This document shows positions 24,422-57,357 of a DNA stretch of 64,000 nucleotides, piece after piece. The notes beneath the pieces are model-generated. The model saw only the letters and a program-made list of their open reading frames with translations. It ran no database searches and was not told where the DNA came from. The position numbers and the translations under genes were made by a program. Origin of the DNA: a virus; the IMG/VR virus record IMGVR_UViG_3300032782_000001, positions 244,404-308,403 of that record. One strand, 5' to 3'. Position 1 is the first letter of the stretch; the number at the start of each line of letters is the position of its first letter.

Positions 24422-24436
24422 TGTAGAGTTGTCTCT

Positions 24437-26209: not shown

Positions 26210-26212
26210 GAA

Positions 26213-43044: not shown

Positions 43045-43689
43045 ATGACAGCGACCAGTCCGGGGCTCGGCTCGTGGTGGATGTACCCCATGAAACCAGC
43101 TCGAGTCACGGAAGCCGTCCTATCATCCATCAACCCATCCGACTACTTGATGGAAAAGAAGTATGATGGATGGAGGGCTATCCTAATTGTCAGTCATGGG
43201 ATTCCCGAATTATGGACCAGGGAAAGGCGACGCATCGAGATGCCGACGAATCTCGACAACCAACTCCGATCGCTCAAGCTTCCAGAGGGCACTGTCCTCG
43301 ACGGGGAAATCTGGAACCCTGAGAAGAGGGGAGGGTGGAAACACGCCAAAGGCGTTGAATGTCAAATCACCTTTTGGGACGCCATCCGAAAAGGAAATCA
43401 AGATCTTAGTCGGAATCCACTCGAAGAGCGAAAAGAACGACTTCGGAATCTAGTATCTCCCACTGATTGTGTGAAAATCGTGGAAGACTTTCCGGCAACT
43501 GTAAAATCAATCGCTGCCGCAAGGGCAGAGGCAATTAGCGCCCGAGGGAATGCGCGTTCTGGATTCGTACATGGAGTGGTGATCAAACGTCGAGAGTCCC
43601 CCCGGCGTGATCACGCCACTAAGTCCCATGAACATTCGGATTGGATGAAAGTGGTTTTCGACGGCATGTCAGGGTGGGCGCCTAGGTGA
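43045..43689 (+). CDS. Minimal ATP-dependent ligase-type nucleotidyltransferase (214 aa)
   Basis: Motif I EKKYDGWRA (KxDGxR), motif III VLDGEIW, motif IV HGVVIKRRES, motif V-like WMKV. No OB domain. DNA versus RNA ligase versus capping-type cannot be decided. Confidence 0.45.
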   Translation: MTATSPGLGSWWMYPMKPARVTEAVLSSINPSDYLMEKKYDGWRAILIVSHGIPELWTRERRRIEMPTNLDNQLRSLKLPEGTVLDGEIWNPEKRGGWKHAKGVECQITFWDAIRKGNQDLSRNPLEERKERLRNLVSPTDCVKIVEDFPATVKSIAAARAEAISARGNARSGFVHGVVIKRRESPRRDHATKSHEHSDWMKVVFDGMSGWAPR

Positions 43690-43931
43690 AATTCCACGAA
43701 TGGAAAGACACTGGGATCAGAGCCACCGATTTGCGCTCCTTCGGACGGTCGAAAAAGAAAATGTCCCGGTACGAGTGCACGAAATGTGGACTCGTGATGA
43801 ACATTTCAGATGTCGATATTCAAATCGAAAAGAAAAACCCCGGGCATATCCACACCGTCGCTAAGGAAACAGTTCAGTCTGATTTCCAAGACTGTGATCT
43901 CACAATCGTGGCTATGGTGATGAAGACTTAG
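43686..43931 (+). CDS. Small zinc-ribbon protein (81 aa)
   Basis: CTKCG...H.H. ATGA overlap with the ligase-like gene. Confidence 0.35.
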   Translation: MKFHEWKDTGIRATDLRSFGRSKKKMSRYECTKCGLVMNISDVDIQIEKKNPGHIHTVAKETVQSDFQDCDLTIVAMVMKT

Positions 43932-45421
43932 CCGTCGTCTTTCGCCAAAAGAGGCTTCAGCCCGGCTGCCTTTCGGAATTCATCTTCCACCCATTGACGA
44001 GCTGAAACTATATCTTCAGATGAAAGGCGCTCATGTGACACCCAAGAACGATATTCACCTGGGGTACCTTTGTATAGAACAACATCTTTGGAAAAATCCA
44101 ATGATGCCTTGTCGAATTGAATGTTATGCTTTTCAGGGGATTCGAAAATAGGAGTACCTTCATACGGAGTCGTAATCGAAACATCCGCGTCATCAAGGCC
44201 CTCTTGAGCCATGAGGACAAGCCAATTTCTGAGTGCAGAAATAGTTTCAGGAGTCTCACCGGGAAGACCAACTTGAGTGAAGACTTTAGGGCGGATCCTG
44301 TACTTCACACAGAGACGGACAAACGCCGTGTTATCCTCAACTGTTGCACCTTTCCGAATATCGCGGAGAATCTTCGGATCCGCGGCTTCTGCGCCAGTAC
44401 ACATTTGAACGCATCCGGCTTCCGCCATAGACTTGAAGATAGAATCAGTTGTTAAGTTCTTCCCATTCTTGAAGAAAGCCCTCCAGAGAATTCCTTCTTC
44501 CTTTAACATTGGAAGGAATTTGCTCATGAAATCTGGCCTCAAGTTGATTTCATCATCGTAAAACATGAAAGCCCGCCATCCGTACATCTCACGGACATGA
44601 CGGATCTCTTCACGGACTTTCTCTGAAGATTTCGCTTCGAGTTTCCGATACCCATCCCAGTGTGAACAATAGGTGCACGCAAAAGGACAGCCGGTAGCGC
44701 TTACAATAGAAGTAGCCCGTTCTCCACCCACGAGATAATTGTAACTTTTGAGGTCAATAAGATCTCGAGCCGGGAGAGGCCATCTGTCATTCTGATAGAC
44801 GACACCGTCATGCATTAAGTGTGAAGCTTCTTCCTTGGAAAGACGGCTGGGTAGTTTAATGATGCGTTCATTCTGTTCCCAACCAATTTCGCAATTATCC
44901 TTGAGTATGCGCAACTGGTTGGTCTTTCTACTAAGCTCTGGTTTATTAGCGAGTCGCTCAGTAGAACGAGATATTCTGTTCAACAATTCGATGAAGCCAG
45001 GCTCCCCACCACCACCACCTTGATCCGAGACTACGACGTAGTCAAACGCGTCGTCGAGACACCTGGACGGTGCAGTGTTGGCATGAGGACCTCCAATAGC
45101 AGTGATGCATTTAGGATTATGGGTCCGAATGAAAGCATTCAGTTTTACAACTTGAGGATGTTGCGCAGCAAGAGAATAGAACCCAACGAGATCCGCGTCT
45201 TGAGCCATTTCCCAAAGGTATTTTTCAGCTTCATCCATGACAGCGTCATAAGACGCGTGAACAATCTCAGGATGTCGTTGCTTATACCCAGTCAGGTCAG
45301 CTACTCGGATTTCATGACCGAGTTGCCTCGCCACTGCCCCGATTTGGAGTGGACCTAAGAAGGGAAAGGCCCTGTCATCAAGGAGAAAGGGGGAGGGAGG
45401 AATAACAAGACAAATCCGCAT
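43928..45421 (-). CDS. B12-binding-domain radical SAM enzyme (class B, 497 aa)
   Basis: N-terminal Rossmann-like B12-binding region followed by ATGCPFACTYCSHW (CxxxCxxC). Confidence 0.65.
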   Translation of the reverse strand: MRICLVIPPSPFLLDDRAFPFLGPLQIGAVARQLGHEIRVADLTGYKQRHPEIVHASYDAVMDEAEKYLWEMAQDADLVGFYSLAAQHPQVVKLNAFIRTHNPKCITAIGGPHANTAPSRCLDDAFDYVVVSDQGGGGGEPGFIELLNRISRSTERLANKPELSRKTNQLRILKDNCEIGWEQNERIIKLPSRLSKEEASHLMHDGVVYQNDRWPLPARDLIDLKSYNYLVGGERATSIVSATGCPFACTYCSHWDGYRKLEAKSSEKVREEIRHVREMYGWRAFMFYDDEINLRPDFMSKFLPMLKEEGILWRAFFKNGKNLTTDSIFKSMAEAGCVQMCTGAEAADPKILRDIRKGATVEDNTAFVRLCVKYRIRPKVFTQVGLPGETPETISALRNWLVLMAQEGLDDADVSITTPYEGTPIFESPEKHNIQFDKASLDFSKDVVLYKGTPGEYRSWVSHERLSSEDIVSARQWVEDEFRKAAGLKPLLAKDDG

Positions 45422-45436
45422 TTGTCTTCCATCGAA

Positions 45437-46564
45437 TCATGAACGACCTAAGGAAGACATACGACGATTCAAAATGCCTTCCAGGCGTTTGCAATTGGAT
45501 TCCCAAGTATATTTCAAAGCCCTTTTCCTGGATTTACGAACTATTTCCTGACGGTATCCTTCTTCTCGTAAGAGCCGAATTACTTCATCCGTAAACGTGT
45601 CAAGATTATTTTTAATATCAGGAATCGTTATCGCGGCACCCCCGTAAAGCTGACCAAGCGCATCTACATTACTCGTAACGACAGCGGCCCCCGCGTAACA
45701 GGCTTCCAATATCGTATTAGAGAATCCTTCAGTCCAACGAACAGGATCACAGGGGTACGCCAAAACTTGGGCTTCGCTCATTTCACGAGCGATCCTCTTG
45801 CGACTCACAGATTTGAAGTGTTCAATACCGTGTCCGCGAAGCCTTTCTACTGCTTCGCTGCAGTATAAGGCTCGATGTTTCTGTTCATGTAAAGCGGGTT
45901 CTGCATGGAAAGGGATTGCTTTCATGGCAGCTACCCACGGATCAAAATTATAGAAAATTCTTAGGACAGCGTGAGGGACTTGACGACGAATATGAGGCCA
46001 CTGCTGAAGAAGTAAATGTAACCCACGATCAGGGGATGAAGCGTAAATTACGCGACCCGGAATCTTAGCACATTCATCAAATGCAGACGGGTCCATCCCG
46101 TTATAGAAAGATTCCCATTTATTATCGGGAACGGCCGGTGCGCATGTCTTGAGGTATTCCGTGTGGGTCTCACTGAGACCGCCAACAACATCCACAAATG
46201 ATTCCCAGCCCGGTTTGCAATACCCGAAATCATTAAGTTGTTGATCAACAACCCGGAGGGGTCCCGGAGCTACCCCGTGGATGAAATCAGGATTCATCCA
46301 CGCCATGATCACATCAAATTGATTTTTATCTGAAGATGTGTAGGCATCGAACGGGCGAATCAAAACACCGTTCCATAAAAACCTGTCAGGAGTATTGACT
46401 GTAACTGTGAAAATTGTAACTTCATGACCCAATTTTGCCATACCCTCAGCATAGCAAAAACATGAGACTTCGGAACCCGTGAGACCTCGATCGTCTTCAT
46501 AGAGACGGGTGAAATCGAAAGGTCTTCCAATACAGAATGACCCGAAAACGAAAGCAATTCTCAT
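45437..46564 (-). CDS. GT-B fold glycosyltransferase (375 aa)
   Basis: RVIYASSPDRGLHLLLQQWP and ILEACYAGAAVVTS...ALGQLYGG. Paralog of the next gene. Confidence 0.55.
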   Translation of the reverse strand: MRIAFVFGSFCIGRPFDFTRLYEDDRGLTGSEVSCFCYAEGMAKLGHEVTIFTVTVNTPDRFLWNGVLIRPFDAYTSSDKNQFDVIMAWMNPDFIHGVAPGPLRVVDQQLNDFGYCKPGWESFVDVVGGLSETHTEYLKTCAPAVPDNKWESFYNGMDPSAFDECAKIPGRVIYASSPDRGLHLLLQQWPHIRRQVPHAVLRIFYNFDPWVAAMKAIPFHAEPALHEQKHRALYCSEAVERLRGHGIEHFKSVSRKRIAREMSEAQVLAYPCDPVRWTEGFSNTILEACYAGAAVVTSNVDALGQLYGGAAITIPDIKNNLDTFTDEVIRLLREEGYRQEIVRKSRKRALKYTWESNCKRLEGILNRRMSSLGRS

Positions 46565-47727
46565 TTACCGACTTTCGTTGCAATGGCGTCATGAAGAATT
46601 TTCTCTAATCTATCCGTGAGGACAGGCCAACTATGTTTCTCAGCAAGAATCTTAGTGTTATCAGTGGCCTCTTTCCGGAATGAAGACTCTGTAAGAGATC
46701 TGATGACCAATTCCGTCCATTCTTCTAAGTGGTCTCGGACTGGACTACGAACTATCGTCTTCACGCTTCCACCGTAGACTGATCCAAGAGCGTCAACGTC
46801 GGTAATTACCGGGACCGCACCAGCTGCGCAAGCTTCCATAATAGTAACGGAAAAGCCTTCCGTATAAGTAACAGTATCACATGGATACGCAAGCACGAGT
46901 GCCGAAGCCATCTCTTCTGCCATTCTGAGTCGGCTAATGCTTTTGAAATGTTGAACATCAGAATCTTTGAGCCTGTTGAATGCCTCACGAATATAGTGAG
47001 CACGATATGCACATTCACGAACATGAGGATGATGGGACGGATCTTCACATGGGAGAAGATTCTGAATCCAGTCATCGAAATTGTAGAAGACGCGAAGATT
47101 AGCTTCAGGGACACGGCGTTTGATCAAGGGCCATTGTTGAAGCAACCAATGAAGACCACGGTCAGGAGAGGAAGCGTATAGAACTCGTCCGGGAACTTTG
47201 TCTATGATCGGATAAGCAGTTGGATCACACCCATTTGGGAGGACAACCCATTTGTGGCCGTTCCCGTATTTTCCAACCATATGACTAAGATGGGCGGAAC
47301 AAGGGCTAGAATAAATATCAACACAAGAATCAAAACCGGGTTGACAGTATGTAAAATCATTAAGTTGCTGATTGACGAACCTAACCGATTTGGCAGGTAC
47401 GCCACGAAGGTTGTCAGGCTCATTCCATGAAAGAACGGCGTCTTCTGTCCAACCTGTCCTGGTATCTGACCAAGCAGAAATTGGAAATATCCTTATCCCT
47501 GACCAGTCCAGACGTGAAGAGGAACTTATGGGGGCGAAAAGTTTGACCTCATGGCCTCGTAATGCCAGTTCTTTGGCAAAACTAAAACATGAAATTTCAG
47601 ATCCTGTAAGACCTCTCGGATCCTCGAAAAGACGCGAAAAGTCAAACGGACGGGGTCCGCAAGCCCAAGAACCATATACGAAAGATAGTTTCACGTTAAT
47701 TTGGGGTCTACGAACTCGCGGAACCAT
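46561..47727 (-). CDS. GT-B fold glycosyltransferase, tandem paralog (388 aa)
   Basis: RVLYASSPDRGLHWLLQQWP and IMEACAAGAVPVITDVDALGSVYGG. Confidence 0.55.
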   Translation of the reverse strand: MVPRVRRPQINVKLSFVYGSWACGPRPFDFSRLFEDPRGLTGSEISCFSFAKELALRGHEVKLFAPISSSSRLDWSGIRIFPISAWSDTRTGWTEDAVLSWNEPDNLRGVPAKSVRFVNQQLNDFTYCQPGFDSCVDIYSSPCSAHLSHMVGKYGNGHKWVVLPNGCDPTAYPIIDKVPGRVLYASSPDRGLHWLLQQWPLIKRRVPEANLRVFYNFDDWIQNLLPCEDPSHHPHVRECAYRAHYIREAFNRLKDSDVQHFKSISRLRMAEEMASALVLAYPCDTVTYTEGFSVTIMEACAAGAVPVITDVDALGSVYGGSVKTIVRSPVRDHLEEWTELVIRSLTESSFRKEATDNTKILAEKHSWPVLTDRLEKILHDAIATKVGK

Positions 47728-48641
47728 GCAACAGTATGAACAATCCCATCTACATAATCAATCTTCGGCTCCCATCCAAGGATGGTCTTAGCAAGTGTGA
47801 TGTCGGGGCATCGCTGCCTAGGATCGTCTTCCGGGAGCGGCAGGCTGATAAGATCGGGAGCATAATCGAAAGCCGATTGGACATCTTTAGCTACAGACAG
47901 AATTGATCTTTCGTCCGGGTTTCCTATATTGACGACCGGGACTTTCATTCTGTCCCTTTCCATTTCCGACAGCAAAATGAGACCTCGGACAGTATCAGTC
48001 ACATAACAGAAACTGCGGGTCTGCCGACCATCTCCATAAACAGTCAGAGGTTCTTTACGCATGGCTTGCATGATAAAATTCGGGATGAGTCTCCCGTCGT
48101 CATGAGCCATTCGGGGACCGTATGTGTTAAAAATGCGTGCAATTCGAATGTCGGTCTTATACTGTTGGGCCCAAGAAACTGCCAAAGCTTCTCCGGCCCT
48201 CTTACCTTCATCATAGCAGGCACGTTTCCCGATAGGATTAACGTGACCAACGTATGATTCGACTTGCGGATGAACTTGAGGATCACCGTAAACTTCGGAA
48301 GTGGAAGCAATTACAATTTTGGAATTTGCATTGCGAGCGCATTCCAATGCATTCAACGTCCCAATGACAGCAGTTTTGATTGTGTTGACGGGATTACGTT
48401 GATACTGAACGGGGCTTGCAGGACAGGCAAGATGAAAAACCACATCACATTCAATATTCCAAGGTTCACAGACATCGTGACGATGAAATTCGAAATTGGA
48501 TCTCTTCAATAAATGCGAAATATTCTCGCGCCTAGATGTGAAGAGGTTATCTATGCAGACAACATCATGCTTTTGTTCGCATAATTGTTCACATAAATGT
48601 GAACCAATGAACCCTGCACCACCAGTTACGAGAATTTTCAC
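47691..48641 (-). CDS. uxs: UDP-glucuronate decarboxylase (UDP-xylose synthase)
   Basis: N-terminal KILVTGGAGFIGSHL. The signature NPIGKRACYDEGKRAGEAL is nearly identical to the UXS1 block RACYDEGKRVAE. Extended SDR fold, 316 aa. Confidence 0.7.
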   Translation of the reverse strand: MKILVTGGAGFIGSHLCEQLCEQKHDVVCIDNLFTSRRENISHLLKRSNFEFHRHDVCEPWNIECDVVFHLACPASPVQYQRNPVNTIKTAVIGTLNALECARNANSKIVIASTSEVYGDPQVHPQVESYVGHVNPIGKRACYDEGKRAGEALAVSWAQQYKTDIRIARIFNTYGPRMAHDDGRLIPNFIMQAMRKEPLTVYGDGRQTRSFCYVTDTVRGLILLSEMERDRMKVPVVNIGNPDERSILSVAKDVQSAFDYAPDLISLPLPEDDPRQRCPDITLAKTILGWEPKIDYVDGIVHTVAWFREFVDPKLT

Positions 48642-48649
48642 GCCTAACG

Positions 48650-49654
48650 CTACCGAGCAGAAATAGTTTGAAGCCTCATACCTCTAATATCCAATTCAGG
48701 ATTAACAGGATCTGCATATCCAGTGGCATGACCGGTTAGGTATAACTGCTCATTTGCACGCTCTGAACGCAACATCTTCCGAATGATCATCAAATCATGA
48801 ACATCGGTGATGTGAACGATATTGGTAGGCTTGAGATACCATTGAGTTCCGAGTCTCATAAATAGGCGATCAGAAACTTCAGAATCCTGCCATCCATGGC
48901 TTCCGTCGTATCTTTCATCAAAGCCATTGACCAACAGAAGTAACTCCGTAGGGATGCTATCATTCTTAAGATGACAAAATTGAGGTTCAATAAATCCTTC
49001 GGGTTTGGATTTTTTCATCTCCTCGTGAATGATTGGGAGATGAAGTGGATTATCGTTGGATTGGAAAGGTTTTTCAAAAATACTCCACATATAACGATCA
49101 AGAAGCCCAGAACTCAAATCCTGGCAGTATGAATCACACCATTCACGAGTAGCAGAATGACGAATAGTGTCATCATCCCATTTAGCGAGTACGTCAGGTT
49201 TCGGGACTCCACGTCCCATCCCGAGCTCACAAAGTCCATATCGGGCGGGGAATCCTGGAGAAACGAGCGGAAGGCCGAGCAAATGGCAAACACCAAGCAT
49301 TGCGTGGTTGGGACCGCGAGCTTGATGGAAATCGGCATGTTCTTGTAAACAACCAGGAGGCAGCCACGAGTAATCGCAAGTGAAATACGAAATGGGACCA
49401 GAAGCGTTCACCAAACCCGTGTTCACACACCGCTGATAACTATTTAGCGGGAACGGGTTATCTCGTGGCTCCACATGACGAATTGGAAAATGATACTGAG
49501 AAGCTTTCTCCGCGACGATAGACTGGCGTTTGTTCCAAAGACAGTCCACAAGGACAAGTTCAAAATCTTTGAAAGTCTGTTGTTCCAGACCTGCAAAGAG
49601 AATATCCAGTCCTCCGACTCGAAGAGTCGGAACAATAACAGAGATCAGGGGCAT
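48650..49654 (-). CDS. Family-2 glycosyltransferase
   Basis: MPLISVIVPTLRVGG...FELVLVD, a GT2 N-terminal DXD-type fold. Start set at ATG 49652-49654 so the gene abuts rather than overlaps the MTase gene. Confidence 0.5.
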   Translation of the reverse strand: MPLISVIVPTLRVGGLDILFAGLEQQTFKDFELVLVDCLWNKRQSIVAEKASQYHFPIRHVEPRDNPFPLNSYQRCVNTGLVNASGPISYFTCDYSWLPPGCLQEHADFHQARGPNHAMLGVCHLLGLPLVSPGFPARYGLCELGMGRGVPKPDVLAKWDDDTIRHSATREWCDSYCQDLSSGLLDRYMWSIFEKPFQSNDNPLHLPIIHEEMKKSKPEGFIEPQFCHLKNDSIPTELLLLVNGFDERYDGSHGWQDSEVSDRLFMRLGTQWYLKPTNIVHITDVHDLMIIRKMLRSERANEQLYLTGHATGYADPVNPELDIRGMRLQTISAR

Positions 49655-49655
49655 A

Positions 49656-50183
49656 CTACGCCTTGTAACAATCGACGTGGAACTCCCAGAAGACACCTGG
49701 GTTTGTGTTCCCTCTGAAGGAAAAATTAGTATAACCGTATTTCTCCAGAAGTTTTTGCATGGTTTCCCGGGTGAAACCCTGACAATGCTTATCAAATTGT
49801 TCAAATAAATCGCCGTGTAGGGATCCCTGTTCGCCCCAAATGAGTTCACTCAGCATGGGATTGCTGGGGTCTCGAATGAATCGTGACATGACTTCAGCCA
49901 TGTCAACCTCCACAATGTGAAGAAGACCACCAGGCGCCATAACACGATGAATGTCTGCCATGACGCGGTCGTGATATTTCGGCGGCAAATGAAGCATCAA
50001 GAACCCTGCATACACTTCTATAACAGAATAATCTGGATAAGGAATAGCATCCGTCCGAGCGTCCCAGAGAACATCGCACTCGCAATCGGAATTTGGCCAT
50101 TTCTTGACTACGTCAAGATTGACCCATCCACCACCAGTGAAATGAGTAGTACCACAAGCCAGATTGAGGCGGATGTCGGTCAC
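49656..50183 (-). CDS. Class I SAM-dependent methyltransferase (175 aa)
   Basis: LNLACGTTHF (motif I), IEVYAGFLMLHL...VMAPGGLLHI (Methyltransf_11-like). Confidence 0.5.
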   Translation of the reverse strand: MTDIRLNLACGTTHFTGGGWVNLDVVKKWPNSDCECDVLWDARTDAIPYPDYSVIEVYAGFLMLHLPPKYHDRVMADIHRVMAPGGLLHIVEVDMAEVMSRFIRDPSNPMLSELIWGEQGSLHGDLFEQFDKHCQGFTRETMQKLLEKYGYTNFSFRGNTNPGVFWEFHVDCYKA

Positions 50184-51220
50184 AAGAACTCCTCATAAAT
50201 AACTCTGAGTTCTTCCGCATGAGACTTGGCCCAAGATAAAACCCTGGACGTACCCATTTCCACGTTCACAACCGGAGCCCACTTTGTAATTGTAGAAAAT
50301 TTCTGATGATTCGTAATGAAGATACTGTCTTCATGTCGGCGACCGGGACCATAAGATGTAGATAAAGGCTTTCCATGAATCTTTTGGATTAAGTCCACAG
50401 CTTCGCAGACGCTCAATGAATTCTGGATACCTCCGCCGATATTGTAAACATTCCCTTGGAGTTCACGGATATTGGAAAATGAGGCCCACACCGCGGAAGC
50501 AACGTCATCAGAAAAGAGCATGTCTCTGGTTTGGAAACCGCTGCCTTGGATTTCCAAAGTCCGTCCTAAAGCAGCAGAAATACAGAACCAAGTTAGCCAA
50601 CCATGACGGGGTCCATGACAAGGTGCATCCCCATATAGATTGGAACACCGAAGAGTAGTCACAGGTAAATCATATGTGCGACCATAAGCCATAACCAAGG
50701 CAGTCTGAGCCATTTTGGAAGCCGCGTATGGCTCATCAGGCTCGAGAAGACATGTTTCATCGATCCCACCGGAAAAACGACCCTCCAAAACAAATCGCTT
50801 TCCATGGATGTGCGATGGTAGATCATGAACTCTATACGGCTTCACACTTGAAAGCATGACTGTAGGTGGAACCGAGGTTCTCATTTTTCTCATTGCCTCG
50901 AGGATATGTCTCGAGGCATTCACATTACTCATCCAATCATCGTGAGGATCTTCAGCACTATGAGGGATACCGGTATGAGCTGCTGCGTGGAGAACGAAAT
51001 CGTGACTTCGAAGTAAGGACTCAAAGTCAGAATTTTCGACACGCTGTTTAAGGATCGTTACAAGTTCTCCGTAGGATGAATACAAAACGTCAGACATCCA
51101 CAGATTCCGCGGTTCCTCAGCGTGATCTACTACAGTGACCATGTGACCGGATTGAGCAGCAAGTTCCACGAACCTACTACCTACAACCCCGAGGCCGCCA
51201 GTGACGAGATACCGCATCAA
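50180..51220 (-). CDS. NAD-dependent sugar epimerase/dehydratase (extended SDR, 346 aa)
   Basis: YLVTGGLGVVGSRFVELA Rossmann motif, catalytic YAASK (YxxxK). Confidence 0.6.
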   Translation of the reverse strand: MMRYLVTGGLGVVGSRFVELAAQSGHMVTVVDHAEEPRNLWMSDVLYSSYGELVTILKQRVENSDFESLLRSHDFVLHAAAHTGIPHSAEDPHDDWMSNVNASRHILEAMRKMRTSVPPTVMLSSVKPYRVHDLPSHIHGKRFVLEGRFSGGIDETCLLEPDEPYAASKMAQTALVMAYGRTYDLPVTTLRCSNLYGDAPCHGPRHGWLTWFCISAALGRTLEIQGSGFQTRDMLFSDDVASAVWASFSNIRELQGNVYNIGGGIQNSLSVCEAVDLIQKIHGKPLSTSYGPGRRHEDSIFITNHQKFSTITKWAPVVNVEMGTSRVLSWAKSHAEELRVIYEEFL

Positions 51221-54200
51221 GTAAGCCCCTTATATTTGGGGACGATATTGAGACGGACTTCATCCAATACGTCGAACAACATCTTTTCCCACTCTTGAGC
51301 CAGGGAATCCCAGCCAAAGTTATTTTGGGCATAGGAACGAAGAGATTCCCTGTCAGTGTTATCAGGGTTCATCATTGCTCGAACAACTTCGTCGATGAAT
51401 CGATTTTGATAGTCAAGGGAAAGCCAGTCGCCAGCTACCATTCGACCCCTAGGGCCAACAGTTTCGTTCAGAGCTGCAATAGGGGAAGTCACCATGCGGA
51501 GACCAGCGGCATGAGCTTCCATTGCAGAAATGCACGAGGTTTCTGAGAACCAAGTTGGGTATGCCCAAACCCCGCTCTTCAGATATTCTTCAGAGAGCCG
51601 AGATTGGCTTACACGACCATGGAAAAAAACTCCGCAGCTCGAATAGTCTTGAAGAAGCTTCTTCAGGCTATTGATGAGGATTTTCTGTCCCGCATCCGCA
51701 CAAGCTTCCCAGGTTTGGAATCCGTAGAAAATATGCAGTTCAGCATCCGGGATTCGTTCGCGGACGCGAGGCCAAATCCGGACAGCTACTTCCATTCCAC
51801 GATCTGGACTGGAACTATAGACGGCTCTGTGGGGATTACGAAGAATATCTTTATTGAATTTGACTAAATCAATCCCGTTTCTAGTCCGCAACACTTGTGA
51901 AGGATGTAAGTATTGATAAGTATTGAGAACATTTCCTTTATGCCAATCTGATAGGCACAGCATTTTATCGATCTTAAGAGCTCGTTCATGAGTCAAAGCG
52001 CCGCCACAATGAATGTCATGGACCCAGCATAGAGTAACACGGCGGCGGACGTTATGAGATGCATCCACAGCTTCGGGCTTACGTGACGTAATCAAAACAT
52101 CACAAGAAAGATCTTTGTATTTGGCAGCATCCAAATACTCCACGCCATCGAATTTTCCTTCCAAACCGTTCACGCAATCACCGAAAACTCTAATTCGATG
52201 ACCCATTCCTTGGAGCCTACGAGACATCTCAATCACTGCTGTTTCGGATCCTCCAATCCCGTTAATGGACGCAGTCAGAGGATTCCAGGGCTCCACTCCG
52301 CGACCGACGTAAAAAATAACGTCAAGCTTGGGCTGAGGGGACTCCAAAATAGATACAGATGTCGATTGAACTTCAGAAGCCGTATCAGGCCATCGACCAT
52401 GAGCACAAATAGATGCTTGTGAATGAATAGGAATGGGTTGTTCCGATTGATCGATAGGGATTACTGATCCCACAACGTGGGAAAGACCAACAGCCTGCAT
52501 GTCAGCAATCACTTCTGACATGATCGGTGCACGTACATGTTCACGGGGCTTCGGATCATTCCAGGATTCATGGAACGGGACACAAACTCCTTGACACCAC
52601 GAACCACGAGGAGTGCTAACGACTAAAAGACCTCCAGGATTCAATAAGGAGACAGCGGTTTTTAAAATCGTGGTAGGGACGGCTTCATGTTCGTAAACTT
52701 CGAACAAAATGACGATGTCATATTTATTAGGGAAGCCTTCCGGAAGAGGATCCCGGCCAAAAAGACAAACCCCATGACGAGCTCCAGTGTGGAATTCTGA
52801 AGCCTTGGCATTAGCAATATCGATGACATTTGGAGATGAATCAACACCCCATGTCTCATGACCCACGAGACCGATTCGATTTGTAACCCATCCATCCATG
52901 CATCCAATATCAAGAATACGAAGCAGTTGTTTCTTCTCTGATTTGATCAAATCGAGAAGATAGTTGTATCGAGCGAATTGTCCGTAAGCAGGACGAATTT
53001 CTTGGGGGAGAGGAACGGCTTCCTTCTCCAATTTATAGTTACTGTAAATCTTTCGGTATGCATCAGGATCGTCCATGTGAGCCAACATGGAGTCCACTCT
53101 AGATCGCATCGTGCGTACGTCTTCGTGATCCCTAATCTTCCAAGGAAGAGATTGAACAAGAGCACGCGCCGCCAACACTTCATCATGAAGGAGAAGTTGC
53201 TTGTAAAGCAACTTCGTCATATTCAGAATTACTTCTGATGAAAGTTCGTCAGGTGCTGTATCAATAGAAATGTCATTGGGAATAATGTGACCAGACGACA
53301 TGGGAGAATGAGCAGAAGGAATATTGACAGGAGAAGGAACTGGAAGCTTTCCAGCTATAGCATCCAAGACCAATTTTTGGACCTCGGAATTTACCACTCC
53401 CATGTTGACTAATTCAGTGAATCCTAGCTCTACCTTCCGCTTGGCGAGATGTTCCTCATAAAGACGTTTGTTTTGAAGAAGCCCAGCGTCATTTGGCCGG
53501 ACGCTAAGAGCGTTATTTACACTCTTCAAGGCATTCTCAACATCCCCGATGCTATTCAAAGCAAGATTCATGAATTGATGAACTTCAAACTCCCGCTCGA
53601 GAGGATTAACGAAAAGAATAGTCTTGGTAGGAGGTAGAGATAATCCAATGCGGAAGAAGTGAATGGCCCTTTCCCAATTCCTGCGAGACCGAGCCCCGCC
53701 ACGTTGCGCAAGAAAGTAAAAACTTTTACCGAGAGAAAAATATGCTTCGGACCAACCTTCTCTGATCGTAAGTGCCTTAGTTGCCCATTCAATTGACGTT
53801 TCGTAATCACCAATCGACTGATAATGCTCTGCTACTTTCAGACAAGAAAGAAATCGTTCGTCGTCCCAGTCAGAAAGTTCAATATATCGCTTGTGGAAAT
53901 TAATGGCGTTACCGATATCGCCAACATTCCCATACTCCAATCCAAGATAATAAAGTTGACGAACGTCGCTTTCGCCGTGTTTCGCGTAGTGAGCCTTAAG
54001 AATACGAAGATTCCTTCCCGGCTCAGGAACTTTCTTGGAAAAAATCTTCTTATGGACCATTCGGACTTTATCCGAATGGTGTTTCAAGGTATCTTGACGT
54101 TGCGGATTCAGAATTTCATGAATCGGTCCGTACCATCGGAAAGCTTCTTTAGGAGAACAAAGTCGTTCTCGTTCTTGAATGCAAGTTACGTTTCCGAATT

Positions 54201-54585
54201 CATCGTGTGAATATTCGTATGGAAAAAAGATAAGCGTTGGAATAGAATGTCGAGATTTATCGAATTCCCCAACCAAATTTTCTAAATTTTCAGCACCAAC
54301 GACTACGTCGTCGCCGTCCACCCATAAAACCCATGGTTGGGTAGCTAAATCAAAGCTTCTTTGCCTCGCTGCTGAAAAGTCAGCTATGAGACCATCCGAA
54401 TCGTTGCAAGCTGAGAACGATTCGAATTTATCAGCGTATCGACGCGCGATTTCAGGTGTGTTATCAGTCGATCCAGTGTCGACAATAACAATTTCCGTCA
54501 CGAAAGGACGGATAGAACGAAGGCAAGCCTCAAGGTTTGCCTCCTCATTCTTGACAATAAGACACGCAGAGATAGGTGCCGTCAC
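51217..54585 (-). CDS. Multidomain glycosylation enzyme: GT2 - TPR-like - SAM MTase - GT-B glycosyltransferase (1122 aa)
   Basis: N-terminus ISACLIVKNEEANLEACLRSI...VDTGSTDNT (GT2). Central ILDIGCMDGWVTNRI (MTase motif I). C-terminus AVYSSSPDRGMEVAVRIWP...ELHIFYGF, the same module as the two stand-alone GT-B paralogs. Confidence 0.6.
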   Translation of the reverse strand: MTAPISACLIVKNEEANLEACLRSIRPFVTEIVIVDTGSTDNTPEIARRYADKFESFSACNDSDGLIADFSAARQRSFDLATQPWVLWVDGDDVVVGAENLENLVGEFDKSRHSIPTLIFFPYEYSHDEFGNVTCIQERERLCSPKEAFRWYGPIHEILNPQRQDTLKHHSDKVRMVHKKIFSKKVPEPGRNLRILKAHYAKHGESDVRQLYYLGLEYGNVGDIGNAINFHKRYIELSDWDDERFLSCLKVAEHYQSIGDYETSIEWATKALTIREGWSEAYFSLGKSFYFLAQRGGARSRRNWERAIHFFRIGLSLPPTKTILFVNPLEREFEVHQFMNLALNSIGDVENALKSVNNALSVRPNDAGLLQNKRLYEEHLAKRKVELGFTELVNMGVVNSEVQKLVLDAIAGKLPVPSPVNIPSAHSPMSSGHIIPNDISIDTAPDELSSEVILNMTKLLYKQLLLHDEVLAARALVQSLPWKIRDHEDVRTMRSRVDSMLAHMDDPDAYRKIYSNYKLEKEAVPLPQEIRPAYGQFARYNYLLDLIKSEKKQLLRILDIGCMDGWVTNRIGLVGHETWGVDSSPNVIDIANAKASEFHTGARHGVCLFGRDPLPEGFPNKYDIVILFEVYEHEAVPTTILKTAVSLLNPGGLLVVSTPRGSWCQGVCVPFHESWNDPKPREHVRAPIMSEVIADMQAVGLSHVVGSVIPIDQSEQPIPIHSQASICAHGRWPDTASEVQSTSVSILESPQPKLDVIFYVGRGVEPWNPLTASINGIGGSETAVIEMSRRLQGMGHRIRVFGDCVNGLEGKFDGVEYLDAAKYKDLSCDVLITSRKPEAVDASHNVRRRVTLCWVHDIHCGGALTHERALKIDKMLCLSDWHKGNVLNTYQYLHPSQVLRTRNGIDLVKFNKDILRNPHRAVYSSSPDRGMEVAVRIWPRVRERIPDAELHIFYGFQTWEACADAGQKILINSLKKLLQDYSSCGVFFHGRVSQSRLSEEYLKSGVWAYPTWFSETSCISAMEAHAAGLRMVTSPIAALNETVGPRGRMVAGDWLSLDYQNRFIDEVVRAMMNPDNTDRESLRSYAQNNFGWDSLAQEWEKMLFDVLDEVRLNIVPKYKGLT

Positions 54586-54602: not shown

Positions 54603-55541
54603 TCACGTCATTTGAGAGTATGAAGAATAAGGATCAATGCACTGCCCACGGAAACTTGCATTCGTATTGGGCGATGCAGTGAAGTTCCCAGAGATGGTCG
54701 TATGATTCGTTTCCATGGTCGCGAGGGCTCCCGAAGATCCAGTCCAGTAAGACTGATTCCCGAGGCCTGAAGCAGTCTCGGATCCACAGAAAAGACCAAA
54801 GTTCTCCGCTTCCCCTGTCGTGGAAGCATAATTGAACCAGTTCTGGAACATACTGGTTTGCGTAGTTGCATTATTGGAATAACAAGCAACAGCTACGAAA
54901 TCAGCGCAGTCCATTAGATTCAACCCTTCAAGTTGATTCGGGCCGCTATTGTATGAGAACGAAAGTGCCGCCGAATTCCCGTCTGCAAGCCACTGCGTTG
55001 CGAAACAGCCGACAGGCATGCTAAGGACGCGTTTCGCGGCCAACATCAAATCACAAAGCCCAATGGGCTCAGTAGTCGTGTAACCCGACATCGTCCAGTA
55101 TTCCACATCGAAAATGAGGCCGTCGAAAGCGCTACCGCCATTGGTGGTCTGCGCCGTGGATAGCATGTTATACGAGGCAATGTGACGAATGATGTTATTC
55201 ATCACCCATTGCTGATTATGTCCCCAGTCAGTGTTCCCAGCGAGAGCATAGACCCGAATGCCAGAAAGATGAGCGAAATGAATGAATTTCTGGACAGTTG
55301 AAACGTGGCCAGTCGACCAGTTACCACCGCCTAGATATCCCCACATATCAAGAAACAACAGGTTTACACCTTGCGATGCGCACCAGTTGAGAAGATTCTG
55401 CATCTTGGTATCCGTCGAGAGCGGATCTCCCGAGGAACCGGCCGTCCCACACCACACAAACATGGCGCGGTCAAGATTAGAATTGGGCGGAACGGGAACC
55501 GCAACAGATGAGACAGTCATGGCAAACTCCTTCGATTTCAA
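54603..55541 (-). CDS. Putative TIM-barrel glycoside-hydrolase-like protein (312 aa)
   Basis: LNLLFLDMWGY...DGLIFDVEYW resemble GH114/GH-like polysaccharide hydrolases. Weak. Confidence 0.35.
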   Translation of the reverse strand: MKSKEFAMTVSSVAVPVPPNSNLDRAMFVWCGTAGSSGDPLSTDTKMQNLLNWCASQGVNLLFLDMWGYLGGGNWSTGHVSTVQKFIHFAHLSGIRVYALAGNTDWGHNQQWVMNNIIRHIASYNMLSTAQTTNGGSAFDGLIFDVEYWTMSGYTTTEPIGLCDLMLAAKRVLSMPVGCFATQWLADGNSAALSFSYNSGPNQLEGLNLMDCADFVAVACYSNNATTQTSMFQNWFNYASTTGEAENFGLFCGSETASGLGNQSYWTGSSGALATMETNHTTISGNFTASPNTNASFRGQCIDPYSSYSQMT

Positions 55542-55582: not shown

Positions 55583-56386
55583 TCACAATTCGTAAAAAAT
55601 CAAACTGACCTGAACAGTATTGGCAGTAGTAGCATCGGGCTTCACATACATAGTAATGCGAGCCGGGCCAGCTATGGGTAAATCTTCAAGATCGTATACT
55701 TGCTGCGGTTGAGCAGTAATGATGCGAAATTGACCCCCGAATTGACGCTCCAATGCGTTGGCTGTAAGAGGTAAAGCAACGCGAAGAATTCCACCACAAC
55801 TAGCACCCTGAGTGCCAAGCAAAAGTCGCTTAATAAAACATGTTTTACCAGCTTGTACGTAATGATGTGCCCAGAAAGTTTGGCCATCACTTGCTGCAAT
55901 AGTACCTACTGTGGTCGCACCATTTTTAATTGAAATGGTTCCAACATTAGTACCATTGGATCCCACAGTGATACTGTCAATTCGTTCAATAAAACAATAA
56001 TTGGAATGGGTTGCAGTAACATTGCTAGTTCCGTTCATCGTAAGAGTTTCAGTAAATGGACCAGACATGGTTTGATCATAATAAGTAATCTTAACAGTCC
56101 TGGTCCCCGTACCAGCTGCAGCATCATTTGCAGAAGACGAAGAAACCGTAGCAGTAAAATTAGCACTTTGCTCTGTGTATGTCGTCGCACGTACAGCAAC
56201 AATGCTAGTTGCAGAAGTAGATACATATCCACCTTGCATGGAAATTACGCCGCCAGAAATGAGACCCCTAGCAATAGCTACTCCAGGCGATGCAGAATAT
56301 TGGAATCCATTCGGGTCAACAATGGCAGCATTGCCATTCTCATCGTAGAATGTGGAATTGACTACAGGGCGGTCATTGATTGCCAT
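55583..56386 (-). CDS. Fiber-like protein, paralog 1 (267 aa)
   Basis: Shares ...SSSANDAAAGTGTRTVKITYYD...C(F/Y)IE(R/K)I...VG(S/T)xGxNVG(T/S)I... with the next two genes. Confidence 0.5.
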   Translation of the reverse strand: MAINDRPVVNSTFYDENGNAAIVDPNGFQYSASPGVAIARGLISGGVISMQGGYVSTSATSIVAVRATTYTEQSANFTATVSSSSANDAAAGTGTRTVKITYYDQTMSGPFTETLTMNGTSNVTATHSNYCFIERIDSITVGSNGTNVGTISIKNGATTVGTIAASDGQTFWAHHYVQAGKTCFIKRLLLGTQGASCGGILRVALPLTANALERQFGGQFRIITAQPQQVYDLEDLPIAGPARITMYVKPDATTANTVQVSLIFYEL

Positions 56387-56388
56387 GA

Positions 56389-57357
56389 TTAATACTCGTA
56401 GTACCCAAATCCACCAAAAAATGAATTAGAACTAGAAGCAGCATCTTGTTGGACGTAAAGAGTAATCCTAGCTGGACCAGAAACTGCAGCAGGAGTGGAA
56501 TCGAACGTGAAATCTTGATTTCCCCCAGCGTTCACTCGCAACTGTGGGGCAAACGTGATTTCCGCTTGAGAAGGGGAAGAAGTTGGGAACGCCTTTCGAA
56601 TAGTGACGGAGCCGTTACTGCTGCCTTTGCTGCCTCCGTGGATCGTCACTACATAAGCTGTGTGATTTGCACGAACATAATGATGACACCAATTCGTTTG
56701 GTTGTCGCCCGGAGCAATAGTGCCAATAGTGCCACCGCTGCCAGCGGTGCCAACAAAAAGATTGATAGTACCGACGTTCCCTCCGGCAGATCCGACTTGA
56801 ACGACGGTCATCTTTTCAATGAAACAAATATCTGTAGCGATGGTGTCTACGGGCGTTGTCCCGTTGAGCGTGACAGTCTCCGTTTCCAGATTCGTGAGAG
56901 TGGAATCGTAGTAAGTAATGAGAACTGTGCGAGCACCAGTCCCAGCTGAAGCATCATTCGCGCTAGAAGACGAGATAGAACGCTGGGCTCCAGTAGACTG
57001 CTCGTTATAAAGAGTAGCACGACATGCAACAATTGAAGGATCGGAAGTGCTTACATAGCCGGGAATGTAGACTGCTTGAGGAGAAAGAGAACCATTGGCA
57101 GTAGATTGGTAGTTATTTTCAAAATCAGACTTATCGGAATCGTTTTGAGCTTGAGAATATCCGCCAGAAATGATGCCATCTGGAACCGTTCCTTTCCAGA
57201 TCGTGCAGATATTCGCTTCAGGTCCATTGTAAAAATAAATCGTATATTTTAATCCATCATCGTCGTATTGGACGATTCCGCCCTTGGATATGTTAACATT
57301 CTTCCAAGCAGTCCATGCGTAGAACCTCTGTGTAAACTGGGGAGCGATGGAAATCAT
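56389..57357 (-). CDS. Fiber-like protein, paralog 2 (322 aa)
   Basis: Same C-terminal module, longer N-terminus. Confidence 0.5.
   Translation of the reverse strand: MISIAPQFTQRFYAWTAWKNVNISKGGIVQYDDDGLKYTIYFYNGPEANICTIWKGTVPDGIISGGYSQAQNDSDKSDFENNYQSTANGSLSPQAVYIPGYVSTSDPSIVACRATLYNEQSTGAQRSISSSSANDASAGTGARTVLITYYDSTLTNLETETVTLNGTTPVDTIATDICFIEKMTVVQVGSAGGNVGTINLFVGTAGSGGTIGTIAPGDNQTNWCHHYVRANHTAYVVTIHGGSKGSSNGSVTIRKAFPTSSPSQAEITFAPQLRVNAGGNQDFTFDSTPAAVSGPARITLYVQQDAASSSNSFFGGFGYYEY

Follow-up and report, generated by a model that had tools for sequence, protein, structure and literature searches.

The genes at positions 43928-54585 of the window, the whole stretch of 64,000 nucleotides that was analysed, on balance probably make up the enzyme-coding half of a late operon in the virion module. 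Their products would build an O-linked oligosaccharide in the host cytoplasm, on the phage's own collagen-like fibres and before assembly. Thirteen co-directional minus-strand genes, with spacings from -37 to about +60 nt, run from the gene of a 2,403-aa collagen-like protein at the start to a radical SAM enzyme gene, and the island occupies the 3' end of this string. A convergent plus-strand gene (43686-43931) terminates the string. The island lies in a virion module, whose head-tail connector (41357-42256), minor-tail homologue, tail terminator and tail sheath follow shortly downstream.

The source of the window is a huge (jumbo) myophage with a contig of at least 436 kb, and its tail sheath has relatives in LR745208.1, Tunturi_5 and phage G. 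A previous sequence-only reading had spoken of a phage-like element; huge myophage is the better term. That reading had also counted ten genes in the island. We found eight, in agreement with public gene calls and with its own list, which sums to eight. The enzyme functions it had named were all recovered in place on the minus strand.

Collagen-like and jelly-roll proteins of the gene string

The 3' part of the collagen-like gene (1,633 codons) was found as an open frame on the minus strand at 59101..64000 and runs past position 64000. The full-length protein was recovered from the same contig in ENA (L093, 2786-9997). It consists of a 13-aa N-terminus, 765 Gly-X-Y triplets with two breaks and a non-collagen C-terminal domain of about 90 aa. 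Threonine occupies the Y position in 384 of the 765 triplets, and the protein has four lysines and no cysteine. The frame is stop-free and contains no ATG, GTG or TTG for about 4.6 kb, and ORF finders therefore give just the last 87 codons (59101-59364). The collagen-like gene noted earlier is far larger than the ORF lists show. The GC content of 62% at this gene results from GXY codon bias. The protein could form a triple helix without hydroxyproline, with a length of about 0.65 micrometres. From its position and from PHROG tail-fibre matches we infer that it is a virion component.

The next minus-strand gene (57361..59097) encodes a fibre protein of 578 aa with a weak Pfam Collagen match and PHROG matches to tail fibre and collagen-like minor tail proteins. 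An N-terminal collagen-like GxT stalk (residues 40-170 approximately) leads through a middle domain to a jelly-roll head at the C-terminus, probably of the TNF/C1q-like type. This head domain has paralogues in two minus-strand neighbours of 322 aa (56389..57357) and 267 aa (55583..56386), which are 46% identical to each other and share 38-43% identity with the C-terminal 215 aa or so of the 578-aa protein. They are accompanied by a protein of 305-312 aa (54603..55541, minus strand) that had no match in Pfam, PHROG or PDB and was placed by its neighbourhood: homologues with 45-65% identity adjoin jelly-roll genes in four other loci (L010, L011, L024 and L030). The jelly-roll paralogues and the 305-312-aa protein are located between the collagen gene and the enzymes.

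UDP-xylose synthase homologue

Based on sequence homology, the 316-aa ORF at 47691..48641 (minus strand) is a true UDP-xylose synthase (UXS, UDP-glucuronate decarboxylase) with its catalytic residues retained. Alignment with human UXS1 revealed 153 identical residues among 310 aligned (49%). In the PDB comparison human UXS1 scored 347 bits (E = 1e-102), against 129 bits for the best non-UXS structure, an epimerase; RmlB (at most 93 bits), ArnA (91) and UAXS (85) scored lower still. By alignment score, the ORF goes with UXS and not with the dTDP-glucose dehydratases or ArnA. A grouping with dTDP-glucose dehydratases had been named beforehand as an outcome that would refute the proposal, and it did not occur. 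The UXS1-like block RACYDEGKRAGE described earlier is present. The Rossmann NAD-binding motif GxxGxxG reads GGAGFIGSH and aligns with GGAGFVGSH of human UXS1. Likewise, ASTSEVYGDP, ACYDEGKR, RIFNTYGPRM and DDPRQRCPDI match human UXS1 motifs column by column, and we take these to hold the catalytic Thr/Ser-Glu, the Tyr-x3-Lys and the C-terminal Arg of UXS1. UDP-xylose had been called an unusual precursor for a phage-like element. UXS is rare in phages, but the gene is not unique here: a copy in LR756500.1 has 49% identity, and copies in relatives of this clade have 50-77%. There is no UDP-glucose dehydrogenase gene in the window, and UDP-glucuronate would therefore have to be supplied by the host or by phage genes outside the window.

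The four-module enzyme and the GT-B paralogues

The gene at 51217..54585 (minus strand) encodes an enzyme of 1122 aa, for which Pfam, PDB comparison and a structural model point to four modules. These are a GT2 glycosyltransferase (residues 1-180), a TPR-like helical region (190-410), a class I methyltransferase (about 450-731) and a GT-B glycosyltransferase (755-1112). Pfam gave Glycos_transf_2 (PF00535, 4e-19), TPR, Methyltransf_23 (6e-17) and Glyco_trans_1_4 (6e-8). The AlphaFold model (pLDDT 87.5) likewise has four modules, with disordered linkers at 415-434 and 738-750. The DGDD motif of the GT2 module (D90, D92, D93) was invariant across 24 homologues. The family comprises more than 1,334 homologues, and its gene is conserved and intein-invaded.

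In a PDB sequence search the N-terminal GT2 module matched Listeria GmaR best (1.9e-18), followed by SunS and ThuS. Foldseek with the model placed SunS and ThuS at the top, spanning the GT-A and the helical domains (about 400 aligned columns, TM on target 0.55-0.70, 16-18% identity). SPINDLY and OGT followed, both TPR-bearing protein glycosyltransferases; a capsule-polymerase multienzyme with TPR and multi-GT architecture (PDB 8qoy) was also among the top fold matches. For the TPR-like region, which is helical in the model at 191-410, consensus-TPR proteins matched with up to 4e-17. GmaR transfers O-GlcNAc onto Listeria flagellin, and SunS and ThuS S-glycosylate glycocins; all act in the cytoplasm directly on protein or peptide. 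They share with the phage enzyme the order of a GT2/GT-A domain and then a TPR-like helical domain. Each of them, however, is a separate protein of about 420-640 aa and transfers just one sugar, whereas in the phage three further modules follow within the same chain. In sequence and predicted fold, the GT2-TPR module resembles protein and peptide glycosyltransferases, and it is the context that points to the class of acceptor.

Two tandem GT-B glycosyltransferases of 375 aa (45437..46564) and 388 aa (46561..47727) are encoded on the same strand, the latter with a 37-nt overlap with the end of the UXS gene. They are 45% identical to each other. As had been suggested, the 1122-aa protein carries a third copy, since both paralogues are about 23% identical to its residues 755-1105 or thereabouts (E about 1e-18).

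Further predicted sugar-modifying enzymes

The last gene of the string (43928..45421, minus strand) encodes a class B radical SAM enzyme of 497 aa (PF04055, 1.4e-22) with the cluster motif CPFACTYC (CxxxCxxC). Its B12-binding domain (PF02310) scored marginally, at 32.3 bits with a cut-off of 32.1, and most homologues likewise have this domain. Among solved structures the nearest is AprD4 from the apramycin pathway, a dehydratase with a B12-binding domain. Assignment to a named class B subfamily (HpnJ, BchE, PhpK, AprD4 or GenK-like methylases) was tried and rejected: the best NCBIfam match was HpnJ with 106 bits against a cut-off of 578. RiPP C-methyltransferases were among the NCBIfam matches, all of which lay far under their cut-offs.

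An extended SDR of 345 aa (50180..51220, minus strand; PF01370, 1.5e-39) was closer in PDB to CDP-tyvelose 2-epimerase (1orr, 3e-33) than to dTDP-glucose dehydratases (1e-22). At the site of TDE in 4,6-dehydratases it carries LSSVKPY. The neighbouring 175-aa protein (49656..50183, minus strand) is a candidate small class I SAM methyltransferase, suggested by a motif I-like LNLACGT and by Methyltransf_23 (3e-4) and Methyltransf_11 (4e-3) matches, both under the Pfam cut-off. A 334-aa protein (48650..49654, minus strand) is a likely GT-A/GT2-like glycosyltransferase. NCBIfam EpsD matched weakly (4e-8), GT-A motifs were recognized by eye (ISVIVPT, FELVLVD and GFDERYDG..WQDSE), and a PDB sequence search gave no match. 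A 399-aa version of this ORF was discarded as an artefact of an upstream GTG. The genes for the 175-aa, 334-aa and SDR proteins also occur together in two further loci, L064 and L073.

Collagen arrays beside the fusion enzyme in other genomes

We analysed the surroundings of the 1122-aa fusion family in 82 viral loci and scored an array where at least eight Gly-X-Y triplets were present. Thr-rich arrays lay just upstream of the enzyme gene, on its own strand, in 33 of the 82 loci and elsewhere in those loci in one (Fisher p = 9e-11, with kinship ignored and a few duplicate loci included). Within the nearest clade (identity of 48% or more), 16 of 21 loci had an upstream array. Among species-representative genomes, the full GT2-TPR-GT-B enzyme had arrays nearby in 5 of 20 loci, with no fixed orientation, compared to none of 50 loci with GT-B only (p = 0.001). 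No collagen array was present in control loci that totalled about 269 kb. LR745208.1 and Tunturi_5, which have the tail and connector genes in common with the phage, showed no match to the fusion enzyme anywhere in their records, and no array in 100 kb and 44 kb, respectively, around their structural genes. The earlier proposal of a link to collagen-like fibres is strengthened beyond adjacency, to one gap-free co-directional string and a neighbourhood repeated in many related viral contigs and some distant chromosomal loci.

About 40% of the huge-phage loci with the fusion enzyme have no array within 10 kb, and a clade at about 30% identity in phages of 40-60 kb has no arrays. Because many loci lack arrays, the acceptor of the family is not always collagen. 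The accessory set of sugar genes varies among related phages, which would give a different glycan in each phage.

Alternative roles of the island

If the island served to remodel LPS, capsule or S-layer glycan at the surface of the infected host, perhaps as a barrier to superinfection, this would account for variable cassette-like gene content as in O-antigen loci and for the fold match to capsule-polymerase multienzyme 8qoy. A comparative study of jumbo phages (Iyer et al. 2021, PMC7824862) takes epimerase/GT clusters in this way and predicts that the sugar clusters of jumbo cyanophages alter capsular polysaccharide. Like the island, these clusters are polymorphic and hold NAD-dependent epimerases/dehydratases, methyltransferases and several GT paralogues; they also carry sugar kinases and nucleotidyltransferases. 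In contrast, our island sits within a structural operon, not among early or moron genes, has a putative initiating module nearest to protein and peptide glycosyltransferases, and tracks collagen arrays, a positional tie that this role leaves unexplained. A Kyte-Doolittle scan (>1.6) detected no hydrophobic segment in the eight enzymes, except at the very start of the 334-aa protein. Pfam gave no match in the island to a flippase, polymerase, priming phosphoglycosyltransferase, exporter, ABC transporter or chain-length regulator, although such machinery may be host-encoded. By contrast, the Yong-DA record, a genuine surface-polysaccharide locus, carries Wzy, Wzc and an exporter. We consider a role at the host surface unlikely. 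Somewhat less probable again is a main acceptor on the virion other than the collagen fibre, which could be the capsid, the tail tube or the decoration proteins with jelly-roll domains. The many array-free loci speak for it, as does the position of the jelly-roll paralogues and the 305-312-aa protein between collagen gene and enzymes. Mycobacteriophages offer a precedent, with glycans reported on capsid and tail-tube C-termini, placed by one or two GTs in siphophages of about 50-60 kb (Freeman et al. 2023, as cited in PMC12619734). These phages also decorate their own structural proteins with phage-encoded GTs, but here a phage genome larger than 400 kb carries, next to collagen-like fibre genes, a 10.7-kb cassette with five GT domains and nucleotide-sugar synthesis. 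Moreover, where arrays occur, nearly all lie immediately upstream in the same orientation (33 versus 1), and the loci L010-L014 have the jelly-roll paralogues without homologues of the island glycosyltransferases.

Hypermodification of phage DNA, with a glycan on 5-hydroxymethylpyrimidines and a pentose donor from UXS and the epimerase as discussed for RB69 arabinosyl-hmC, appears very improbable. Phage GT-B enzymes do put diverse glycans on 5hmC (Pyle et al., as cited in PMC12619734; bioRxiv 10.1101/2023.12.21.572611), and a UXS/UXE route to UDP-arabinose was proposed for RB69 (PMC6024577). Yet Pfam detected no dCMP/dUMP hydroxymethylase, TET/JBP dioxygenase or cytosine methyltransferase among the ORFs of about 100 aa or more in the window, which spans 64 kb of a contig of at least 436 kb. 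Furthermore, the island belongs to a structural and not a nucleotide-metabolism module, and five GT domains with a TPR module surpass known DNA-glycosylating systems. The glycocin S-glycosyltransferases SunS and ThuS, AprD4 and the RiPP C-methyltransferases among the radical SAM matches could also point to a product other than a virion glycoprotein, namely a sugar-bearing peptide or small molecule along the lines of glycocin-like RiPPs or aminoglycoside-like metabolites. We give this little credence, the least of all. Precursor-peptide, transporter, immunity and scaffold-forming genes are absent, the radical SAM matches are all far under the family cut-offs, and the rest of the string consists of fibre genes.

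Comparison with known fibre glycosylation systems

For glycosylation of the collagen-like fibres themselves, two models were compared. In Clostridioides difficile the soluble GT-A enzyme SgtA, encoded beside bclA3, transfers O-GlcNAc onto Thr of GPT repeats (PMC7157674), and the BclA glycan has methylated anthrose as its terminal sugar (PMC6222408). BclA of Bacillus anthracis and BclA3/SgtA share with the phage the Gly-X-Thr repeats and GT and sugar genes adjoining the fibre gene, and may also have in common with it a TNF/C1q-like jelly-roll head (in the phage on the 578-aa protein). The phage system differs in being phage-encoded and not from a spore-former, in a fibre about ten times longer (765 triplets) and in predicted sugars that include xylose. 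Unlike SgtA as described, the GT2 that would start the glycan shares its polypeptide with TPR, methyltransferase and GT-B modules.

The analogy with giant-virus fibrils had been drawn before. Mimivirus has collagen-like proteins, and its L230 hydroxylates Lys and glucosylates hydroxylysine (PMC9614988). The analogy is partial: collagen-like proteins and virus-encoded enzymes are found in both, but L230 acts on hydroxylysine and the phage collagen has 4 Lys in 2,403 residues. Both PBCV-1 A064R and the Mimivirus system are, like the phage set as proposed here, virus-encoded, cytoplasmic and independent of host glycosylation machinery. A064R also combines two GT domains in one polypeptide with a methyltransferase that methylates the sugar added. 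It has no detectable sequence relationship to the phage fusion, whose domain order and GT families (GT2-TPR-MT-GT-B) differ. In contrast to the giant viruses, the phage island has no lysyl or prolyl hydroxylase, and the host is a bacterium. Because 4 Lys stand against 384 Thr at Y, Thr O-glycosylation of GPT repeats is the closer model. By analogy, the BclA/SgtA type is thus our best reading and would fit better than the hydroxylysine type.

Proposed pathway and meaning for huge phages

Following strong homology, the phage UXS would convert host UDP-glucuronate to UDP-xylose, and the CDP-tyvelose 2-epimerase-like SDR may provide a further modified nucleotide sugar. By analogy to GmaR, SunS/ThuS and SgtA, the TPR-like domain of the GT2-TPR module would bind the protein substrate, and the first sugar would be placed on Thr (or Ser) at Y of Gly-X-Thr. 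Chain extension would probably fall to the 334-aa GT2 and the GT-B modules, three in number, and one of these enzymes would take UDP-xylose, while the fused and the 175-aa methyltransferases may O-methylate sugars. The B12-type radical SAM enzyme could C-methylate or deoxygenate a sugar, the least certain step. The glycan may then stabilize or shield the hydroxyproline-free triple helix and set the surface chemistry of the fibre.

A xylose-containing methylated glycan on fibres has not been described for huge phages. Tentatively, and with clear reservations, we extend the proposal to the whole clade: these phages might make sub-micrometre collagen fibrils without hydroxyproline or hydroxylysine, with folding, stability and surface identity relying on a phage Thr-O-glycosylation machine, the GT2-TPR-MT-GT-B enzyme with swappable modules (such as UXS, a B12-radical-SAM enzyme and C-methyltransferases). 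If true, bacterial viruses would have their own equivalent of the Bacillus exosporium nap and of the layer of glycosylated fibrils on giant viruses, and variation of the cassette would serve to switch antigenicity or host range.

A glycan-biosynthesis island in a huge myophage

Eight genes at 43928-54585, all on the minus strand, were found consistently in the ORF list, in public gene calls for this DNA and in HMM scans, where the sequence-only reading had counted ten in a row. First in transcription order is the gene for an enzyme of 1122 aa (51217-54585), referred to here as the big GT. Pfam matches along it were Glycos_transf_2 at residues 6-183 (4e-19), weak TPR matches at residues 209-290, Methyltransf_23 at residues 550-701 (6e-17) and Glyco_trans_1_4 at residues 928-1052 (6e-8). 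The AlphaFold model (mean pLDDT 87.5) likewise contained four folded modules, namely GT-A (1-180), helical repeats (190-410), a Rossmann methyltransferase (~450-731) and GT-B (755-1112), joined by disordered linkers at 415-434 and 738-750. Both analyses thus bear out the proposed four-module single polypeptide.

The next gene encodes an extended SDR, a putative second nucleotide-sugar enzyme (50180-51220, 345-346 aa; PF01370, 1.5e-39). It is followed by a small methyltransferase candidate (49656-50183, 175 aa) and a GT2-like protein (48650-49654, 334 aa). The latter matched the NCBIfam EpsD glycosyltransferase model (4e-8) and GT-A motifs are visible in its sequence; it had no Pfam match, and a PDB sequence search gave nothing useful. 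Of the GT2 and SAM methyltransferase genes that had been predicted, the GT2 has moderate support; the methyltransferase matches of the 175-aa protein were all sub-threshold. Downstream lie the UDP-glucuronate decarboxylase (UDP-xylose synthase, UXS; 47691-48641, 316 aa) and two tandem GT-B enzymes (46561-47727 and 45437-46564; 388 and 375 aa). The latter share 45% identity, and both resemble the GT-B module at the C-terminus of the big GT (E ~1e-18), as expected for two paralogues and a third, fused copy. The last gene encodes a radical SAM enzyme (43928-45421, 497 aa) with a radical SAM core (1.4e-22) and the motif CPFACTYC. Its N-terminal B12-binding domain barely reached the Pfam cut-off, so that both features read from the sequence are present, the B12 domain marginally. 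No near-identical record was found when the island was compared with GenBank phages by megablast. We have very high confidence in the reading of this stretch as a huge-phage island for glycan biosynthesis.

The tail sheath (27874-32547, minus strand, 1557 aa) matched proteins of LR745208.1 (an uncultured huge phage of 485 kb), of the 308-kb Tunturiibacter phage Tunturi_5, where it is annotated as tail sheath, and of Bacillus phage G. ORFs near the sheath matched three Tunturi_5 proteins with conserved gene order, namely the tail terminator, the minor tail protein and the head-tail connector, and proteins of the window also occur on a contig of 436,316 bp. We therefore identify the element as a huge (jumbo) myophage whose structural module contains the island, with the connector gene ~1.7 kb downstream. 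No tRNA genes were present in the window. A genome-collection scan for the host yielded only MAG contigs from many phyla.

Several other genes of the window were recorded. The sheath seems to contain a large inserted domain, as its ends (~1-630 and 960-1553) match the LR745208.1 and Tunturi_5 sheaths and its ~330-aa middle does not. A 349-aa protein (35134-36183, minus strand), encoded between genes resembling those for the tail terminator and the minor tail protein, matched over its full length Volactin, a Pfam family of archaeal actins (E = 4e-70); a 50%-identical homologue has the same position in LR745208.1. A haloarchaeal virus or island was considered because of this match and the rise in GC to 62% at the window end (59101-64000). 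It was rejected, as the sheath, terminator and connector have their counterparts in huge bacteriophages, and the GC rise results from the Gly-X-Y codon bias of a collagen gene and not from foreign DNA. A short ATP-dependent DNA ligase-like gene (43045-43689, plus strand, 214 aa) lies between the island and the connector gene; most close relatives retain it in the same place, with 44-55% identity. The cluster at 24368-26779, a possible module for RNA repair or anti-defence, includes a PTH2 peptidyl-tRNA hydrolase (3e-22), a protein with weak similarity to kinases and a match to the HAD domain known from 'Swiss Army Knife' RNA-repair proteins (5e-21). Three related HNH-endonuclease-type ORFs (12021-12398, plus; 14659-15348 and 15290-16123, minus), the largest with a PHROG HNH match of 7e-37, adjoin an AAA ATPase (16697-18202) and are probably homing endonucleases.

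Assignment of the nucleotide-sugar and radical SAM enzymes

The UXS was compared with solved structures. Human UXS1 structures were matched with E = 1e-102 and 347 bits, followed by epimerases (≤129 bits), dTDP-glucose dehydratases (≤93), ArnA (91) and UDP-apiose/xylose synthase (85). Identity to human UXS1 was 153 of 310 aligned residues, with exact alignment across the NAD motif, both catalytic motifs (TSE and YxxxK) and the Arg region at the C-terminus. The protein does not group with the dTDP-glucose dehydratases, and at the level of sequence we consider the UXS assignment solid. For the SDR, the closest solved relative was CDP-tyvelose 2-epimerase (3e-33), ahead of dehydratases (1e-22). 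The protein also lacks the Asp-Glu pair typical of 4,6-dehydratases. From the expected epimerase or dehydratase the SDR fold is retained and the dehydratase is disfavoured; an epimerase or reductase appears more likely.

The radical SAM enzyme falls in no named subfamily (best NCBIfam model HpnJ, 106 bits against a cut-off of 578). Its sole meaningful solved relative was the sugar diol-dehydratase AprD4 (1e-14). About 60 close homologues, some of them with inteins, are all unnamed proteins from metagenomic contigs, and none was found among GenBank phages.

UXS is rare among deposited phages, and other copies exist. The copy in LR756500.1 has an unrelated context, as neither glycosyltransferases of these families nor collagen occur within 20 kb of it. 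In ON073792.1 ('Aphanizomenon phage Yong-DA', 42.6 kb), UXS is located beside UGD, Wzy, Wzc, a polysaccharide export protein and aminotransferases. This region looks like a bacterial Wzy/Wzc exopolysaccharide locus of the classical surface-polysaccharide type. Records of near-identical length are deposited as Planktothrix phage and as Caudoviricetes sp. 'Manatee Spring'.

The island is continuous with a collagen gene

Fibre-like and collagen-like genes had been said to adjoin the island directly, and they prove to share one gene string with it. Thirteen genes run in the same direction with gaps of -37 to ~+60 nt, the first for the collagen and the last for the radical SAM enzyme, and the string ends at a converging plus-strand gene (43686-43931). 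Promoter-like sites were fewer than the shuffled expectation. Terminator-like sites numbered 27 against 17.5 expected (sd 3.8); all were weak, and none marked a boundary within the string.

Next to the big GT gene lies a minus-strand gene for a protein of 305-312 aa without assigned function (54603-55541), for which a PDB sequence search gave nothing useful. Three minus-strand paralogues follow (55583-56386, 56389-57357 and 57361-59097; 267, 322 and 578 aa) that have a ~215-aa C-terminal domain in common (38-46% identity). In Pfam and PHROG scans the 312-aa and 322-aa proteins had no match and the 267-aa protein matched one PHROG of unknown function; the 578-aa protein had weak matches to collagen and tail fibres.

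The collagen gene is an open minus-strand frame from 64000 to a stop at 59101. Because ATG, GTG and TTG are absent over ~4.6 kb, ORF finders report only an '87-aa' stub; off-frame ORFs in this region (e.g. 60489-62054 and 62316-63035) were discarded as artefacts. A 337-kb ENA contig carrying the same genes gives the full length of 2,403 aa. There, 13 residues at the N-terminus precede 765 Gly-X-Y triplets, interrupted twice, and a C-terminal domain of ~90 aa follows. Thr occupies the Y position in 384 of the 765 triplets, and the protein has four Lys and no Cys. With the collagen helix rise of 0.286 nm per residue, the stalk would be ~0.65 micrometres long if fully triple-helical.

A second collagen-like protein (18669-20282, plus strand, 537 aa) with Thr-rich Gly-X-Y triplets and a globular C-terminus strongly matched PHROG tail-fibre families (2e-83). 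It is encoded at some distance from the minus-strand island and may be an additional glycan acceptor. Its gene adjoins one for an inosine-uridine-preferring nucleoside hydrolase homologue (20495-21430, plus strand; PF01156, 1e-13).

Collagen-like arrays accompany the big GT in many related loci

More than 1,334 homologues of the big GT were collected, in two architectures of ~810 aa without and ~1,100 aa with the methyltransferase. IMG/VR contigs held 310 relatives. Some homologues contain inteins, and contigs reach 439 kb. The only label, found on some members, is the generic JGI 'glycosyltransferase involved in cell wall biosynthesis'; the NCBI-held homologues looked up had no names. Intein-interrupted (LAGLIDADG, Hint, intein-splicing) homologues of the big GT and the radical SAM enzyme were seen at 6284-8857 of the comparison locus L007 and in the homologous proteins P0160, P0165, P0168, P0202, P0208, P0262, P0264, P0313 and P0314. 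Conserved, important genes are the usual hosts of inteins.

We compared 82 viral loci with a big GT (80 from IMG/VR and two ENA/NCBI assemblies), scoring runs of at least 8 Gly-X-Y triplets as arrays. Arrays lay upstream on the same strand in 33 of the 82 loci, against one elsewhere in those loci (Fisher p = 9e-11; this and the following array test treat loci as independent despite common descent, with a few duplicates among the contigs). Thr was at Y in about half of the triplets. Loci with an enzyme at least 48% identical to that of the window had arrays in 16 of 21 cases; the ~30%-identity clade, on 40-60 kb contigs, had none. Control loci (~269 kb) were free of arrays, as were the fetched structural regions of LR745208.1 and Tunturi_5, two records without a big-GT match anywhere. 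In species-representative genomes, arrays occurred in 5 of 20 loci with the full GT2-TPR-GT-B architecture and in 0 of 50 with GT-B-only matches (p = 0.001). Some of these arrays were on the opposite strand, and one was on a 2.3-Mb Blastocatellia chromosome.

The cassette is modular across related loci, with the big GT and one GT-B as its core. UXS co-occurs with a second stand-alone GT-B (9/11 loci vs 1/39, p = 2e-7), forming a xylose module. SDR, 175-aa methyltransferase and 334-aa GT2 travel together (L017, L064, L073 and other loci), and the radical SAM gene was found in about nine loci. Alternative modules occupy the same position in other relatives, with NDP-hexose C-methyltransferase domains (PF08421/PF08484), GFO_IDH_MocA oxidoreductases and cupins. 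In a neighbour-joining tree drawn without support values, both GT-B copies of the window and those of locus L024 fell in the 'core' clade as a lineage-specific duplication, a placement that does not single out a xylosyltransferase from the tandem pair.

The island resembles a protein glycosylation system

The closest sequences to the N-terminal GT2 of the 1122-aa enzyme were Listeria GmaR (1.9e-18), SunS and ThuS. Foldseek with the model ranked SunS and ThuS best, spanning the GT-A and helical domains, followed by the TPR protein glycosyltransferases SPINDLY and OGT; the capsule-polymerase multienzyme 8qoy also scored high. PHROG 13126, a phage family of 394 positions, covers exactly the GT2-TPR unit (6e-39). 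A hydropathy scan found a membrane segment in no island protein, and flippase, polymerase, priming transferase and exporter families had no match in the island. A precedent is SgtA of C. difficile, a soluble GT-A enzyme encoded beside bclA3, which transfers beta-O-GlcNAc onto Thr of GPT repeats in vitro (PMC7157674). Together, the lack of membrane machinery, the likeness to GmaR, SunS and ThuS, PHROG 13126 and the SgtA precedent point to direct protein O-glycosylation in the cytoplasm, in which Thr of Gly-X-Thr would be the acceptor.

The main alternative is remodelling of host-surface polysaccharide, as proposed for the sugar clusters of jumbo cyanophages (PMC7824862). The island, however, is devoid of the Wzy, Wzc and export machinery found in the Yong-DA locus, and its position in a structural operon and its association with collagen also speak against this explanation. 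A virion acceptor other than the collagen fibre would fit the many collagen-free big GT loci, but we think it unlikely here. Glycan hypermodification of DNA appears highly improbable, as Pfam found no hydroxymethylpyrimidine-forming enzyme among the window ORFs of roughly at least 100 aa, the window being a small part of the genome. Even less credible is a small-molecule or glycocin product, for which there is no supporting gene. On balance, it is slightly more likely than not that the island product decorates the collagen-like fibres.

Relation to known glycosylation systems

Self-glycosylation is established in chloroviruses, where A064R combines two glycosyltransferases and a methyltransferase, and in mimiviruses, with fibril glycans and L230 acting on collagen hydroxylysine (PMC9614988). 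Capsid and tail-tube proteins of mycobacteriophages are glycosylated according to work cited in PMC12619734, and Thr-O-glycosylated collagen-like fibres are known from Firmicutes spores (PMC7157674). Our literature search found no account of huge phages in which a collagen-fibre operon is fused to a multi-enzyme cassette with UXS and a B12-radical-SAM enzyme. Literature and databases gave no functional name for the GT2-TPR-(MT)-GT-B family beyond generic 'cell wall biosynthesis', and the string 'glycos' is absent from a 2026 review of jumbo-phage biology.

If the proposal is true, tailed phages join giant viruses in encoding a complete multi-step glycosylation of their own fibres, including nucleotide-sugar synthesis. 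The proposed acceptor, a collagen in which half of the 765 triplets have Thr at Y, could reveal what stabilises a long triple helix in the absence of hydroxyproline. A function is thereby proposed for a large family with over 1,300 members, of which 310 come from IMG/VR contigs. The variable cassette is also a candidate diversity determinant in environmental huge phages. It would set the surface chemistry of the particle, for example in adhesion, host recognition or resistance to proteases or grazers.
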